42,441 nucleotides of DNA from Escherichia coli (lineage in GTDB: Bacteria; Pseudomonadota; Gammaproteobacteria; Enterobacterales; Enterobacteriaceae): the NCBI RefSeq assembly GCF_003334385.1, contig NZ_QOWN01000037.1; one strand, written 5' to 3'. The notes beneath the pieces were generated by a model, which made no database searches, was not told the origin of the DNA, and saw nothing but the letters and a program-made list of their open reading frames with translations. This document shows positions 1,846-18,430 of the stretch, in pieces. The translations under genes were made by a program, and so were the position numbers. Within the stretch, counting starts at the first letter, position 1. Each line of letters starts with the position of its first letter.

Positions 1846-2019
1846 TTATGTCGGTGATACTTCGTCGCTGTCTCGCCACACGTCCTCCTTTTCCTGCGGT
1901 AGTGGTAACACCCCTGTTGGTGTTCTTTCACACCGGAGACACCATCGATTCCAGTAAGGTTGATTTGGTCGGAAGCGGTTATCTTCTTTGCATTCACCGC
2001 ACCGATAACATCGCATCAT
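1846..2019 (-). CDS. ninD: NinD protein
   Basis: [57 protein letters not shown]; the ATG overlaps the ninB stop (ATGATG). The track ORF extends further upstream, but coupling favours the 2019 start. Confidence 0.75.
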
Positions 2020-2456
2020 GCTGCCCGATCTCCCCATCGCGCTTTCCATTCGAGAGCCAGTCGCGCTTCGTCTGACCACTTAACGCCACGCTCTGTACCG
2101 AATGCCTGTATAAGCTCTAATAGCTCCGCAAATTCGCTTACACGCATCCTGCTGGTTGACTGGCCTATTACCACAAAGCCATTCCCGGCAAGGTTAGGAA
2201 CAACGTCCTGCTGCTTTAATGCTGCTGTAAAAACGCACTTCCAGCTTTCTGCATCCAGCCAGCGACCATGCCATTCAACCTGACGCGAAACGTCACCAAG
2301 GCAAGCCCAAAGCTTCCGATTTTGGTCTAAGCTGCGGTTGCGCTCCTGAATGGTTACTACGATTGGTTTGGTTGGGTCTGGAAGGATTTGCTGTACTGCG
2401 TGAATAGCGTTTTGCTGATGTGCCGGAGATCGAATTTCAAAGGTTAGTTTTTTCAT
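2016..2456 (-). CDS. ninB: NinB recombination protein
   Basis: Translation from [56 protein letters not shown] matches lambda NinB as recalled; track ORF 2016..2474 has a slightly upstream alternative start. Confidence 0.85.
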
Positions 2457-2484
2457 GACTTCCCTCTCCCCCAAATAAAAAGGC

Positions 2485-2512
2485 CTGCGATTACCAGCAG
2501 GCCTGTTATTAG
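2485..2512 (-). terminator. Rho-independent terminator (tR2-like) between the replication genes and ninB
   Basis: Minus strand reads AGGCCTGC-tggtaatc-GCAGGCCT followed by TTTTTATTT; same position as lambda tR2. Confidence 0.6.
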
Positions 2513-2533
2513 CTCAGTAATGTAGATGGTCAT

Positions 2534-4414
2534 TTAATACTCCGTCACGTTTTCCTGTCGCCACGCCTCGTCATATTCCGATTTCGGCATATTGGCGATG
2601 TAGCTATAAGGCGATCCTGATTCAAGTTGCAGGAACTGGTGCGATTGCTCGTCAAGGAACAACGGGACACCACCTTCCCAACCTTCGCCGTTACGTTGTT
2701 TTTCAAGCATCAAAACAGATGCCGGAGATGCCAGTAGCTGTTCGTCCTTCTCTGACATCTTTTCACCACTCTGAACTCTCTGTAACGCTCTCTCGCGAGC
2801 CTTGTTACGCCAGATGATGAAAAGGTTGTCTGTCAGGTCTGTTATCGCTCCAGAGCCTTTTACGTCCATTTTCCCGGTTGGTTTTTCTTCGCTGTCTCCT
2901 TTTCGCGAGTGAGTAACGAGAATGACGTGGGAGTTTGTTTTGTTTTTGAAGTCGCAAATCAAGTCAACAAACGCCTTCTGCCCGTTATAGTCATCGTCGC
3001 CTATGCCACATTTCATCAGGCTGTCGATGATGAATAACTGGATCCCGTATCGGCGGCGAGCGTAGTCGAATATTTCGATCAGCCTGTCGGCTTTCGCCGT
3101 TCCGGTCAGGCCAAACACCCAAAGTCTTTCGTCATAAAATTTAAATGCAGAGTCAATTTCCAGCACTGGCGGCATCTTGCAGCACGTCGCCTGACGGGTA
3201 AGGCGCTTAAGGAGAATACCAGGCTTCAGCTCAAGTGACGCGATGCACGTCTTCACACCCTGACGCATTGCCTCAAGTGCCATATGCCCGACAACCTCCG
3301 TTTTTCCGTGACCGTTCACACCATTGACCAGCGTCAACTCGGCCTCACGGAACTGGAATTTATCTGCCAGAGATTCCCACGGTGGATTAAACAGATACTG
3401 CTGCTTGCCGTAGAAAGCGTTGATAGTGTCCTGGTAAAACTCTCGCGCGCTGTAGAGTTCTTCAGGATCGAAGTAGGATGCCGTGCCGATGTACTGCCAG
3501 ATTTCATCCTCGGTAACACCGTTCATCAGGCATTCGTTGATGTCTTTGTACGGCAGAGTAACAAGACGGCAACGATGTTCACCGAGTCGGCTTGCGATTT
3601 CCCTTGCGGCTTCACGACCAACATCATCAACGTCCATCGAGATGAATATTTCCTCAAACCTGTCGAGGTTGTGATACTCAAACTCAATCCACTGTTGCTT
3701 AGCGCCTTTCCCGCCACCAAACGGCACGGATAACGCCGAGATGCCGTATTGCGCATAGCTCATACAATCAATTTCGCCTTCGCAAAGTACAACCGCCCTC
3801 ACGCCAGCGTCCAGAGCCTGCCATCCGAACAGACAAGGTTCACAATCACCTTCTGCCATAATGACTTTCTTCCCGTCCGGGCGCTCAGTGCTGATTCGCT
3901 TGACCTGCAACAACTCACCATCGCGTTTGTACGGAAGCACCAGTGCATCAAGTTCTCGTTCTCCATTCCACACCTTGCCGCTGACAACCTCGTAGCGCTT
4001 TACGACTTCTGGCGATATGCCACGCGATTGCAGGTACTCAAGATGGGATTCTGTTCTGGTAACGTAGCGGGCGATTTTCTTGCGGTCAGGTCTGGAGAAT
4101 TTCTTCTCACGTTTGGCATCGAAATGGTGATCGTCATCCTTGATTCCGAGAAAGGCTTTCGCTTCCTGCATAGCCTGATGCAGGTTAATTCCTCGACATG
4201 CCATCCACAAATCAAGCATGTCACCGCCGTCCCCCTCAGCGAAATCAGCCCATTTTTTCTTGCCGCTAAGGTTGACCTTAAGGCTGTTTCCCTTGTCACC
4301 GTTGACGTTACCGGCAACCCACTCATGCCCCTCTTTCTTGCCGTTTGGCAACAGGTGCGGAGCCACCCTGTCAACCTGCGCCCAAAGCAGGTCGCTAAGT
4401 TCACTTGGCCTCAT
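2534..4414 (-). CDS. Replicative primase-helicase (N-terminal TOPRIM primase fused to C-terminal DnaB/SF4-like P-loop helicase)
   Basis: 626 aa; TOPRIM-like LCEGEIDCMS followed by DVDDVG; Walker A GVNGHGKTE and Walker B-like LFIIDSLMK in the C-terminal half; GAGGG RBS; sits where lambda P would be. Confidence 0.7.
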   Translation of the reverse strand: MRPSELSDLLWAQVDRVAPHLLPNGKKEGHEWVAGNVNGDKGNSLKVNLSGKKKWADFAEGDGGDMLDLWMACRGINLHQAMQEAKAFLGIKDDDHHFDAKREKKFSRPDRKKIARYVTRTESHLEYLQSRGISPEVVKRYEVVSGKVWNGERELDALVLPYKRDGELLQVKRISTERPDGKKVIMAEGDCEPCLFGWQALDAGVRAVVLCEGEIDCMSYAQYGISALSVPFGGGKGAKQQWIEFEYHNLDRFEEIFISMDVDDVGREAAREIASRLGEHRCRLVTLPYKDINECLMNGVTEDEIWQYIGTASYFDPEELYSAREFYQDTINAFYGKQQYLFNPPWESLADKFQFREAELTLVNGVNGHGKTEVVGHMALEAMRQGVKTCIASLELKPGILLKRLTRQATCCKMPPVLEIDSAFKFYDERLWVFGLTGTAKADRLIEIFDYARRRYGIQLFIIDSLMKCGIGDDDYNGQKAFVDLICDFKNKTNSHVILVTHSRKGDSEEKPTGKMDVKGSGAITDLTDNLFIIWRNKARERALQRVQSGEKMSEKDEQLLASPASVLMLEKQRNGEGWEGGVPLFLDEQSHQFLQLESGSPYSYIANMPKSEYDEAWRQENVTEY

Positions 4415-4518
4415 GATTCCCTCAGATTGAGATTTTTAAACCAGAAATCGACAAACGAAATACTTAACCAGCCGTGGTTATAACCAGCGACCAGTAACGA
4501 TTTGATTTTTGATTTCAT
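4411..4518 (-). CDS. Small coupled ORF (35 aa) between O and the primase-helicase
   Basis: MKSKIKSLLVAGYNHGWLSISFVDFWFKNLNLRES; AGGTG RBS inside the O 3' end; its stop overlaps the primase-helicase ATG (ATGA). Below the track size cut-off. Confidence 0.35.
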   Translation of the reverse strand: MKSKIKSLLVAGYNHGWLSISFVDFWFKNLNLRES

Positions 4519-4521
4519 GGT

Positions 4522-5382
4522 TCACCTGTCGAAAAACACGTAGCCTGTTTTCGATACGGTGATTGCGGATGATGGTTTGGATTGTGGTTGAATGGTTTCT
4601 GGCTTCTCGTCGTTCCAGCGTTGACCGTTCAGGTAGCTCGATGGTAACAACCTGTCGAATCCGAACTGCTTACCATTCCTGCATGCGATGTCTTCTGCCA
4701 GCATCGTGGCAAACTCGCTTGCCGTACCCCTGGTAGTTTTACGCCATTCCCTGAACTGTGTTCTGAATGCCGAAGCTGCGTTTTTCTTCCCGGCCTTCCG
4801 CATGCCTGCACACCAGAATATTTCCTCGAATGCCTTGTCGGTTTCTTCGTGACGGTCAGGTGATTTTTCACACTCCGTCCGAACACTTTCGGACATAGTG
4901 TTTTTATTATTTCTTTTTTCTTTTGTAATAGTTTCTTTTGTGTGTCCCTGTTTTGGTGACAGCGCTGTCACCGTTTTGGTGACACTTTTTGTCACCAATG
5001 CAGTGACATTATCACCAGAGTAGTGACACCCTTCGATTTGCCATTCCTCGATGTTCTTGTTAGGCCCGATTTGCTGGCCTTCGCGAAGGATAACCTTCAT
5101 CGCGATAAGCTCATTCTTGGCCTTGTTTACCTTCTGTCTTGGCAGCCTGGTAATTTGAGCTAACTGACTATCAGAGATGCGATCCATCTTTTTACCGTAG
5201 CCGTATGTTTTACGGCATATGGCGTGGGCAACCTTGCTCTGATTTTTCGTTAAATCTGCGCCGATAAGCTCTTCATACAGGGCATTTGCAAGACGGGTAT
5301 AACCATCTTCAACTTCTGCCACACGACGCTCCACAGGCCGTTGTGAAGGCCTTAAATGTGTTACGGTTGCAAGATTACTCAT
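4522..5382 (-). CDS. O: Replication initiator O (lambda-O-like N-terminal domain, divergent C-terminal domain)
   Basis: N-terminal region ([56 protein letters not shown]...GPNKNIEEW) parallels lambda O; iterons lie inside the gene. Confidence 0.8.
4895..5031. repeat. Phage replication origin inside O: four iterons plus adjacent AT-rich region
   Basis: GGTGACAGCGCTGTCACC (4955-4972), GGTGACACTTTTTGTCACC (4978-4996), GTGACATTATCAC (~5003-5015) and GTGACACC (~5023-5030) at ~23-bp spacing, each with internal dyad; AT-rich stretch 4895-4940. Same organisation as lambda ori. Confidence 0.7.
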
Positions 5383-5521
5383 GACCTTTCTCCTTCTGCA
5401 TCAGCTTCACTTTTTCCAACTCAGCCCGGAATCGACCAGGCTGCTTGAAGCTGGACAGGAAGCGATCACGTAGTATGTGTTTGTGAATTTTGTCCTGGTA
5501 AGGACTGAGTTGTTTTGTCAT
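5375..5521 (-). CDS. Small basic protein (48 aa) between cII and O
   Basis: [48 protein letters not shown]; GGAG RBS 5 nt upstream; its 3' end overlaps the O start by 8 nt. Confidence 0.4.
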
Positions 5522-5555
5522 AATTACTCCTGTGGATTGATCCAGTCTTTCTACA

Positions 5556-5834
5556 TCAGGCCTCGAAGAATTCGCCGTTCTTCGGGGCTTTTTCTTTTGT
5601 CAGCATTCTGGCTACTTTCTTAGCCAGTTCCGCCAACTCCTCGTCTTCAACACCCCATTCAAGAACAGCCAGAAGCATTCCCATTTTTGGGATGAAGCTG
5701 TCTTTCCATCGCGAAATTTGCGATTCATTAATCCCTAACGCGTCGGCAACCTTTCGCTGACCACGTACAGCAATTCGATTCAGGATGTTGCTTGTAATTG
5801 CATTCGCTTTCTTGCGAGTACTTGTAAGTTGCAT
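5556..5834 (-). CDS. cII: CII transcriptional activator
   Basis: 92 aa with the lambda-CII-like core ([42 protein letters not shown]); located after cro and nutR. Confidence 0.85.
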
Positions 5835-5892
5835 ATGTAAGTATTTCCTTAACTAATAAGAAGTTATGCGCATCAACTTATGCGCGTTGTAT

Positions 5893-5938
5893 TCCCGCAT
5901 TTCGGCGGGAATGAGGACCATGACTGTTAAAGAGCGGT
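5893..5938 (-). promoter_or_regulatory. nutR (boxA plus boxB hairpin)
   Basis: Minus strand carries CGCTCTTTAACA (boxA) then a TCCCGC-CGAAAT-GCGGGA hairpin (boxB); the same elements recur at nutL. Confidence 0.7.
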
Positions 5939-5942
5939 GTTA

Positions 5943-6143
5943 CTATTTGTTTTTCTTGTTGCTTGGGAAAGGACGAACTTCCTCTCCAATCACACTGCCA
6001 TCAGGCTTTACCGTAACCATAATGTTACGGCCTGCCAGAATGGCCTTGCTGATAGCGCACTGGATTACACCAAAGTCACTGGCTGCTTTAGCCTGTCCAT
6101 GGATTTTGGCGTAATCGGCAAGTGTCATTCGAATCATATGCAC
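5943..6143 (-). CDS. cro: Cro repressor
   Basis: 66 aa ([58 protein letters not shown]) close to lambda Cro; the true start may be the second ATG at 6137. Confidence 0.85.
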
Positions 6144-6243: not shown

Positions 6244-6960
6244 ATGGAAAATAAAAAATCACTGACGACAGAACAGCTCGAAGACGCTAAGCGGCTTAAG
6301 GCTTTGTATGAGTCAAAAAAGAAAGAATTGGGAATAACCCAATACTCAATCGCTGATGAACTGGGTATCACCCAAGGAGCGGTAGGGCATTATCTTAATG
6401 GCAGAAACGCGCTAAACGTTGAGGTCGCATCTGGTTTTGCACGATTGTTGCAAGTCTCAATTGCTGATTTTAGCCAGTCAATTGCTGCCAAGGTTGCAGA
6501 ACAGGCAGAAAGCCTTAAGAGCGATGCCAACGTAAGGTATGCAGGGGAATACAGAGCAGGAAAGAGGTATCCGGTGTTAAGCAGTATCCAGGCTGGCTCG
6601 TGGTGTGAAGCATGCGAACCATACACCATTAAAGACATAGATGTTTGGCTTGAGTCTGACGCGCATATTCAAGGTAATGCGTTCTGGCTTAAAGTGGAAG
6701 GTGATTCAATGACGGCACCGGTTGGGTTAAGCATTCCAGAGGGAACATTCGTTCTTTTCGATACCGGAAGGGAGGCGATCAACGGCAGCTTGGTCATAGC
6801 AAAACTTTCTGACTCTAACGAAGCAACATTCAAGAAGCTGATAATCGACGGCGGAAATAAATACCTCAAGGGACTTAACCCTGCATGGCCTCTCGTGCCA
6901 ATCAATGGAAACTGCAAGATTATAGGCGTTGCAATTGAGACAAAACTAAGGCTGGTTTGA
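6244..6960 (+). CDS. cI: CI prophage repressor (HTH plus S24 LexA-like autopeptidase domain)
   Basis: 238 aa; parallels lambda CI in the N-terminal region (LTTEQLEDAKRLKALYESKKKELGITQ) and the C-terminal domain (FWLKVEGDSMTAP...FKKLI); the DNA-binding helix differs. Confidence 0.85.
   Translation: MENKKSLTTEQLEDAKRLKALYESKKKELGITQYSIADELGITQGAVGHYLNGRNALNVEVASGFARLLQVSIADFSQSIAAKVAEQAESLKSDANVRYAGEYRAGKRYPVLSSIQAGSWCEACEPYTIKDIDVWLESDAHIQGNAFWLKVEGDSMTAPVGLSIPEGTFVLFDTGREAINGSLVIAKLSDSNEATFKKLIIDGGNKYLKGLNPAWPLVPINGNCKIIGVAIETKLRLV

Positions 6961-18227: not shown

Positions 18228-18430
<203 letters not shown>

Follow-up and report, generated by a model that had tools for sequence, protein, structure and literature searches.

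We discuss here a replication module on the minus strand of a 42,441-nucleotide (nt) stretch of Escherichia coli DNA (NCBI RefSeq assembly GCF_003334385.1, contig NZ_QOWN01000037.1), the whole of which is called the window below. The module occupies positions 2534 to 5521, within the early-right operon of a lambdoid prophage, and encodes a lambda O-like replication initiator, a large protein with primase and helicase motifs, and two very small proteins of 48 and 35 amino acids (aa). As a whole, the data are best explained by an ES18-type lambdoid replication module in which a phage-encoded helicase would be recruited by the initiator and the 35-aa protein would serve as an accessory factor, a reading to which we give a probability of roughly three in four. 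The open reading frames (ORFs) claimed in a preliminary description, made from the letters of this DNA, were all found in place on the minus strand. From upstream to downstream, with the evidence for each, they are as follows:

5375-5521, minus strand: 48-aa ORF, DUF2740, equivalent to P22 orf48 and HK620 hkaW (Pfam PF10872, E = 1e-28; context of tblastn matches; reading of the junction)
4522-5382, minus strand: O-like replication initiator, 286 aa (ORF; Pfam Phage_rep_O, E = 3.9e-37; BLASTP with lambda O)
4411-4518, minus strand: gene for the 35-aa microprotein, equivalent to ES18 gp60, epsilon34 gp51, and PHROG 21848 (profile matches; contexts; predicted helical hairpin)
2534-4414, minus strand: predicted bifunctional primase-helicase of the T7 gp4/Twinkle type, 626 aa (Pfam; PDB sequences; PHROG 239; Foldseek)

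Its gene order and nucleotide identity show the module to be the ES18/mEp043-type replication cassette, already known from lambdoid prophages. A megablast search with the module returned 430 phage records; coliphage mEp043 and Shigella phage Sf101 match the whole module at 98.4% and 98.1% nucleotide identity, respectively, and Salmonella phage ES18, where this module type was first annotated, matches at 87.5%. The gene order is that of ES18 genes 58 to 61 (a DUF2740 ORF, an O-like gene with an internal origin, a 35-aa ORF, and a primase-helicase of about 626 aa, set between cII and ninB), and the same four genes stand in the same order in epsilon34 (genes 49 to 52), mEp043, and Sf101. The GenBank record of ES18 describes gp58 as “similar to HK97 gene 53,” gp59 as “similar to lambda gpO” (gene 59 carries an internal rep_origin), gp60 as a 35-aa protein of unknown function, and gp61 as “putative primase/helicase; similar to phage T7 gene 4.” The pairing of an O homologue with a primase-helicase also appears in the epsilon34 paper (PMC2629481) and in the Anderson typing-phage paper (PMC10307801). 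The preliminary description had presented the arrangement as a noteworthy hybrid; we abandon that view because the module type is common and already annotated in these sources. That is, the module itself is nothing new: it is a standard, interchangeable lambdoid cassette that abounds in E. coli, Shigella, and Salmonella and is carried by Stx2 phages as well, with at least 341 near-identical copies in IMG/VR and more than 2,000 relatives in the protein database, across Enterobacterales. What remains of interest is the 35-aa gene; few genes in the module are so constrained in length.

The initiator and the primase-helicase

By profile and BLASTP matches, the initiator is O-like in its N-terminal half only. 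Phage_rep_O covers aa 20 to 114, TIGR01610 reaches 105.3 bits (cutoff, 45.5), and the 49% identity with lambda O is confined to aa 1 to 157, with no similarity found by BLASTP beyond aa 157. The C-terminal half has no Pfam match, and no sequence relative of the initiator was found among solved structures; this half does match PHROGs of replication initiators. The earlier claim of a lambda-like N-terminal domain joined to a different C-terminal domain is therefore borne out. Four iterons, with start-to-start distances of 23, 24, and 20 bp, lie inside the O gene beside an A+T-rich stretch, which, by analogy with the layout of the lambda origin, we presume to be the origin unwinding element. The parts of the initiator gene are as follows:

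5041-5325, minus strand: Phage_rep_O origin-binding domain, initiator aa 20-114 (Pfam; TIGR01610)
4943-5028, no strand: four iterons of about 19 bp with an internal dyad of the TGTCAC-N7-GTGACA type (direct and inverted repeat search; reading of the sequence)
4901-4942, no strand: A+T-rich stretch adjoining the iterons (reading of the sequence; layout as in lambda ori)
4525-4956, minus strand: initiator C-terminal domain, aa 143-286 (unrelated to the lambda O C terminus; co-inherited with the primase-helicase)

Hence, of the attributes of a lambda O-type initiator, the N-terminal domain and the in-gene iterons with their A+T-rich stretch are present, and the P-binding C-terminal domain is absent. 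The window shares with the lambda O-P system the family of the O N-terminal domain, the four iterons and A+T-rich stretch within the O gene, the location between cII and the nin region, and a two-domain logic in which the N terminus of O serves origin binding and the C terminus serves partner recruitment. It differs in lacking P and ren, in the unrelated C-terminal domain of O, in having two small genes that lambda lacks, and in encoding its own helicase, whereas lambda hijacks host DnaB through P. A tblastn search for lambda P, the lambda O C terminus, and ren found no homologue in the window (best E value, 0.044, at an unrelated position), and the interval between O and ninB is fully taken up by the 35-aa ORF and the primase-helicase. 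The preliminary description had placed a primase-helicase where P would stand, beside a lambda-type origin binder, and both points hold: lambda P yields noise only, and the N-terminal domain, the iterons, and the predicted domains agree.

At the protein level, the primase-helicase is 94 to 95% identical to its ES18 and epsilon34 counterparts, whereas the O protein of the window is just 68% identical overall to the O proteins of these phages. The O proteins of epsilon34 and Scho1 have N-terminal regions that are 94% identical to lambda O, and as whole proteins they are 96 to 97% identical to that of ES18 (PMC2629481). Because the identity of the window O with lambda O is 49%, its iteron specificity probably differs from that of ES18 and epsilon34.

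By domain matches and modeled fold, the 626-aa protein is an intact DnaG-type primase core fused to an intact hexameric-helicase domain of superfamily 4 (SF4), as in T7 gp4 and Twinkle; the primase core comprises a zinc-less segment resembling a zinc-binding domain, an RNA-polymerase subdomain, and a TOPRIM domain. Its recognizable parts are as follows:

4205-4327, minus strand: segment resembling the zinc-binding domain of DnaG and gp4, aa 30-70, without the four Cys ligands (TIGR01391; Cys count; AlphaFold2 model)
3521-3796, minus strand: TOPRIM domain, aa ~207-298, with acidic residues in LCEGEID, DVDD, and KDINE (Pfam; alignment with T7 gp4)
3299-3322, minus strand: Walker A motif, GVNGHGKT (alignment; motif reading)
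3017-3037, minus strand: Walker B motif, LFIIDSL (alignment; motif reading)
2687-2704, minus strand: EKQRNG, an arginine-finger motif of SF4/DnaB-type helicases (motif reading)

Pfam finds Toprim_2 at aa 209 to 296 (E = 2.3e-11) and AAA_25 at aa 357 to 507; phmmer against PDB sequences finds T7 gp4 over aa 192 to 539 (E = 2e-23) and Twinkle (E = 1e-13); and PHROG 239, “DNA primase/helicase,” matches at an E value of 8e-171. The TOPRIM motifs EGEID, DVDD, and KDINE align with EGEID, DMDE, and KDANE of T7 gp4, and helicase motifs H3 and H4 are also present in alignment to 5ikn and 6n7i. We take EKQRNG to be the arginine finger in view of the known motifs of T7 gp4 and DnaB. The TOPRIM acidic residues and the helicase motifs are invariant across relatives that are 38 to 100% identical, and the full-length primase half is retained, under obvious constraint, in hundreds of prophages. 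An AlphaFold2 model of the protein (mean predicted local distance difference test score [pLDDT], 83.6) matched T7 gp4 structure 5ikn (E = 7.5e-26; TM-score normalized to the target, 0.62 to 0.64) and Twinkle (E = 4e-25) in Foldseek, which also returned the Aquifex primase structure 2au3, comprising the zinc-binding and RNA-polymerase domains; PADLOC gave generic DnaG/ATPase matches only, and it returned nothing for O or for either of the small ORFs. The TIGR01391 (dnaG) profile matches aa 26 to 143, and beta-strands are predicted in the segment at aa 30 to 70. Only one Cys (C73) occurs in the first 100 aa, a count that leaves no Cys4 zinc site and marks the segment as a zinc-less version of the domain.

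With T7 gp4 and Twinkle, then, the protein shares the catalytic motifs and the order of a segment like a zinc-binding domain, an RNA-polymerase/TOPRIM part, a linker, and a RecA-type helicase. It differs in being only about 20% identical to them and in having an extra insert of about 27 residues before the arginine finger; unlike T7 gp4, and as in metazoan Twinkle, it has no Cys4 zinc site. It also differs from T7 gp4 in its setting, an origin- and initiator-dependent temperate module that presumably uses a host polymerase and has no dedicated phage polymerase. The fusion of TOPRIM and Walker A/B motifs in a single protein of 626 aa, as first described, was confirmed by the domain search and by the likeness to T7 gp4 in sequence and predicted fold. 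The label “DnaB-like helicase” stands as far as the superfamily is concerned, SF4 being that of DnaB, but the protein is of the T7 gp4/Twinkle type and lacks the N-terminal domain of DnaB itself.

What holds the initiator and the helicase together? The Stx2 phages phi24B, Min27, and Stx2a_F451 match the window only at about 2458 to 4906, which covers the helicase, the 35-aa ORF, and the C-terminal half of the initiator. Where the primase-helicases are about 99% identical, the initiator begins with one or the other of two unrelated N-terminal domains, Phage_rep_O or a helix-turn-helix (HTH) type; the HTH-type initiators (Stx2a_F451 type; 243 to 272 aa) resemble that of the window over their final ~144 residues only (87% identity), and the joint between the two types falls just after the iterons and the A+T-rich stretch. 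In a more distant clade (Fraca, SaltyDalty, and EKP1; helicase about 60% identical), three initiators are alike in their last ~28 residues only. As read from these alignments, one unit of exchange is the origin-binding domain with its iterons, and the other is the initiator C terminus with the 35-aa gene and the helicase. Such co-inheritance is as expected if the O C terminus docks or recruits the helicase, and we infer that it would do so.

Two side observations concern these relatives. The length of the HTH-type initiators (L004 5857-6633, and L010, L020, L044, L067, and others; L numbers denote loci compared here) varies through a Gly/Ala-rich repeat (GGAGAARGGAGAALGGGAGAAP), which probably reflects a variable number of iterons in the HTH-type origin. 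In addition, the primase-helicase copy of Stx2a_F451 (L004 2840-5746), as of phi24B, Min27, and P0012, is 968 aa long; in L004, a 342-residue insert lies within Walker A (GHGK/...THN/T) and starts with Ala-Cys instead of Cys. This insert is an intein because it contains Hint and LAGLIDADG homing-endonuclease domains.

The 48-aa and 35-aa genes

Both small ORFs had been described as coupled to their neighbors by overlapping stop and start codons. As read from the sequence, this is so for the 48-aa ORF and O, which overlap by 8 nt (ATGAGTAA), and for the 35-aa ORF and the primase-helicase, which overlap by 4 nt (ATGA), but not for O and the 35-aa ORF, which are separated by a 3-nt gap (TGAACCATG). 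A Shine-Dalgarno sequence, AGGTGA, spans the O stop codon.

The 48-aa ORF is identical or 85% identical to HK620 hkaW, ORFs of HK022 and VT2-Sakai, and P22 orf48. By tblastn, it occurs ahead of O genes in 127 phage records whose helicases span every type: its relatives precede lambda P-type modules (HK022 and VT2-Sakai), P22 gene 12-type modules, and primase-helicase modules. Because it lies upstream of O whichever helicase type follows, it cannot be a helicase-specific adaptor, and from this distribution DUF2740 belongs to the common early-operon repertoire of lambdoid phages, outside the helicase-specific machinery. According to a P22 construction paper, the prophage can be maintained without orf48, and our literature search found no experimental work on orf48. 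The idea that the two small ORFs are equivalent adaptors is thus not upheld, since the 35-aa ORF alone is tied to primase-helicase modules. PHROG 1913 and many RefSeq records (NC_019706, NC_002371, and others) label DUF2740 as “tail protein,” which, given its early-operon position between cII and O, is evidently a propagated misannotation. The 48-aa ORF nearly matches lambda gene O in its ribosome-binding site and opening four codons (window 5519-5552, ACTGGATCAATCCACAGGAGTAATTATGACAAA), and on this account the DUF2740 ORF looks to have been inserted at a mosaic joint immediately after the ancestral O start.

The P22 gene 18-gene 12 module offers a useful comparison. As in the window, an O analogue is paired with a phage-encoded helicase in the absence of a P-type loader, and the same DUF2740 ORF stands in front (orf48, 85% identical); in contrast, no 35-aa gene lies between genes 18 and 12. 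P22 gp12, a helicase of the DnaB type, has no primase domain (PMC8022706); a paper cited there reports that E. coli DnaG synthesizes oligonucleotides together with gp12.

By the pattern of substitution, the 35-aa ORF is a genuine gene under purifying selection. It matches PHROG 21848 at an E value of 4.4e-26, and the ratio of nonsynonymous to synonymous differences (pN/pS) is 0.41 in its own frame, versus 1.1 and 1.6 in the other two. Among nine diverged copies compared by the Nei-Gojobori method, dN/dS ranges from 0.1 to 0.5 with synonymous sites saturated; pS reaches 0.98, and pN is at most 0.42. With the DUF2740 match of the 48-aa ORF and the profile match and frame-specific constraint of the 35-aa ORF, both small ORFs can be taken as real genes.

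Conservation extends to context. In a sample of 91 loci whose helicases are either near-identical or 58 to 76% identical to that of the window, an intact 35-codon ORF lies directly upstream of the helicase in 86; in 4 it is retained with an HNH gene inserted at the ATGA junction, and in 1 (L088) it is frameshifted. The gene is intact, with its 35 codons, in nearly all loci with a helicase at least 58% identical, on more than 100 contigs, including those of Proteus, Xenorhabdus, and Pantoea. It is commonly left unannotated, e.g., in PV340537 (mEp043) and in the RefSeq record for F451. The HNH insert itself encodes 164 aa (PHROG 59, E = 1e-56; L031 2010-2504, also L060, L072, L082, L141, and L147) and sits exactly at the ATGA junction, so that the helicase start changes from MRPSE to MEAPLSPSE and the small ORF stays intact. 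In L132 (1273-1500) and L164 (505-732), a variant with an altered C terminus (…NLDLSSH) is followed by an insert of about 120 nt before the helicase, and the two genes do not overlap translationally.

Searched with a profile of the peptide, a set of 1.84 billion representative proteins yielded 49 clusters (50% identity; E ≤ 1e-3), most of exactly 35 aa. In a gap-free alignment of 38 sequences, down to 29% identity with the window peptide, K6, F27, and L32 never vary, and Y13, G16, and V23 hardly do. The resulting family signature, K6 ... [GA]-Y-[CN]-x-G ... V23 ... F27 ... L32, with the turn G-Y-[C/N]-x-G at its center, is present in the window peptide, and AlphaFold2 predicts a helix at residues 2 to 15, a turn, and a helix at 20 to 29 (pLDDT, 74.6). 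With this model, Foldseek returned nothing significant (best E value, 1.6), and the family has no match in Pfam, NCBIfam, or PADLOC.

Four divergent members of the family lie on long contigs, and all four are in Toprim_2/AAA_25 modules with helicases 38 to 60% identical to that of the window; the gene order is initiator-microprotein-helicase in two and microprotein-(small ORF)-initiator-helicase in the other two. Two further members, on contigs too short to reach a helicase, each precede an initiator-like gene. Likewise, every credible match in the phage database falls in a module with a Toprim_2/AAA_25 protein. An in-frame fusion of the initiator C terminus to the microprotein was found in two metagenome samples (L176 1658-2053 and L177 176-571), with a product of 131 aa (...SNHII-MKSIIKSILIRGYNYGW...); the L176 locus may be a decaying prophage, as its helicase gene is split. 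Two other ideas about the peptide were set aside. The first, that the ORF is a remnant of a segment fused elsewhere to the helicase N terminus, found no such fusion among the 49 clusters. The second, that the peptide supplies zinc ligands to the primase through a Cys-His pair present in most members, was dropped because the clade of the window has Asn for Cys.

Proposed mechanism and its alternatives

We propose the following model. Transcription from pR would allow O to oligomerize on the iterons and destabilize the A+T-rich stretch. The C-terminal domain of O, with its tail, would then recruit the phage primase-helicase directly, and the helicase would assemble on the exposed single strand, unwind, and prime. 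Host polymerase III holoenzyme, single-stranded DNA-binding protein, gyrase, and ligase would supply the rest, and host DnaB, DnaC, and DnaG would be dispensable. In this model, the 35-aa protein would act at the initiator-helicase step as an adaptor or as an assembly or loading cofactor. Replication independent of host DnaB and DnaG, as the preliminary description also proposed, is plausible from the domain content. If the cassette does bypass DnaB, DnaC, and DnaG, phi24B, Min27, and Stx2a_F451 would replicate under host constraints other than those of the lambda-like Stx phages with which most replication work was done. Since mEp043 infects E. coli K-12, the role of the 35-aa gene is directly testable.

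Several observations weigh against this reading. A search of the literature found no experiment on the host requirements of an ES18-type module or on the activity of its proteins. The predicted zinc-binding domain lacks its Cys ligands; in T7 gp4, this domain is needed for template recognition, so the specificity or even the activity of the primase could differ. The position of the 35-aa gene varies, before or after the initiator. A second allele of it, encoding a protein 71% identical (dS ~0.7; L053, L067, L071, L074, L080, and L083), sits inside O C-terminus and helicase flanks that are 98 to 99% identical; such diverged alleles in near-identical flanks suggest that the 108-bp gene is swapped as a cassette with sharp boundaries, that both alleles work with the same partners, and that partner specificity is loose. 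At one locus with a helicase 60% identical (L110, which is the same contig as L193), the gene is missing altogether; this is the sole such locus of the Enterobacterales clade. Among loci with helicases 36 to 45% identical, some 26 of 33 have no homologue within 4 kb, and about 7 have a recognizable copy. Finally, when the microprotein was tethered to the primase-helicase through a 30-residue Gly/Ser linker in AlphaFold2, pLDDT per 10-residue block rose from 73/81/79 to 83/85/91, a modest gain, of about 10 points, in pLDDT values alone. Around position 1501 of L110, the stop codon of the initiator and the start codon of the primase-helicase overlap with no gene between them (GCTGATGACG).

On this distribution, the 35-aa protein depends on primase-helicase modules, and the modules do not depend on it; its absence from most of the distant loci marks it as an accessory factor. 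Most likely, it acts at the initiator-helicase step and is dispensable in many lineages. It is possible, and we raise it tentatively, that the family constitutes a third component of origin-dependent T7 gp4-like modules, as a minimal loader or adaptor that links the initiator at the origin to the ring helicase (a functional counterpart of lambda P); alternatively, it would be an inhibitor of the host replisome.

Could the 35-aa protein instead be a host-takeover factor that inhibits DnaB, DnaC, or DnaG, affordable only to phages with a primase-helicase of their own? Its one-way association, in which it occurs in primase-helicase modules only and many such modules do without it, is consistent with such a role, and the free exchange of its diverged alleles in identical O/helicase backgrounds would fit a target outside the module. 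In the Staphylococcus aureus phage 77, ORF104 is likewise a very small protein of the replication module, adjoining helicase/loader genes, and it reportedly binds the host loader DnaI; the 35-aa protein differs in having no sequence or detectable fold similarity to it. However, the 35-aa gene always sits right beside the initiator gene, with translational coupling to either the initiator or the helicase, a natural in-frame fusion to the initiator C terminus exists, and searches for similarity to known inhibitors, including PADLOC and Pfam, found none. On balance, we consider a host target a serious but less likely alternative, and a role between initiator and helicase remains the preferred one.

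Is the 626-aa protein self-sufficient? It might have lost primase activity or serve as an origin-specific helicase only, in which case the phage would still need host DnaG, DnaB, or both. The missing zinc ligands would fit such a loss, and metazoan Twinkle, a relative in sequence and fold with the same architecture, is not known to be an active primase; the P22 gp12 helicase, for its part, is reported to work with host DnaG. The conservation of every TOPRIM acidic residue and of the helicase motifs across the whole range of relatives, and the upkeep of a complete primase half in so many prophages, make this dependence quite improbable in our view. Least probable is that the 35-codon ORF is a mere translated spacer, with a functionless peptide, that couples helicase to O translation and sets their ratio: the ATGA overlap, the 3-nt gap after O, the constant length, and the helicase Shine-Dalgarno sequence (GAGGGA) contained in the last codons (CTG AGG ...) would suit a spacer, but the amino acids are conserved in a frame-specific manner with synonymous sites saturated, six residues are invariant or nearly so across 38 sequences, and several lineages have the gene upstream of the initiator or carry, ahead of the helicase, an HNH gene or an insert of ~120 nt.

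Surroundings of the module

The genes and signals that flank the module are those of a lambdoid early region:

6244-6960, plus strand: cI (ORF list)
5943-6143, minus strand: cro (ORF list)
5556-5834, minus strand: cII (ORF list)
2481-2504, minus strand: intrinsic terminator-like hairpin with a T-run, placed like tR2 between the primase-helicase and ninB (consensus scan only)
2016-2474, minus strand: ninB (ORF list)

No Rfam family matches inside 2534 to 5900. At 5558 to 5600 on the plus strand, antisense to the early-right operon and overlapping the last cII codons, lies a strong terminator-like hairpin (14 pairs and a T-run) whose position and orientation are those of the lambda oop RNA terminator; Rfam has no family match there. 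Elsewhere in the window, Rfam identifies a lambda cIII thermoregulator in the early-left operon (10216-10274; 88.5 bits) and a naRNA4/REP-type element at 18280 to 18350. Matches to the phage database stop near 16.8 kb, at the integrase, and the remaining ~25 kb (about 16800 to 42441) is probably host bacterial chromosome.

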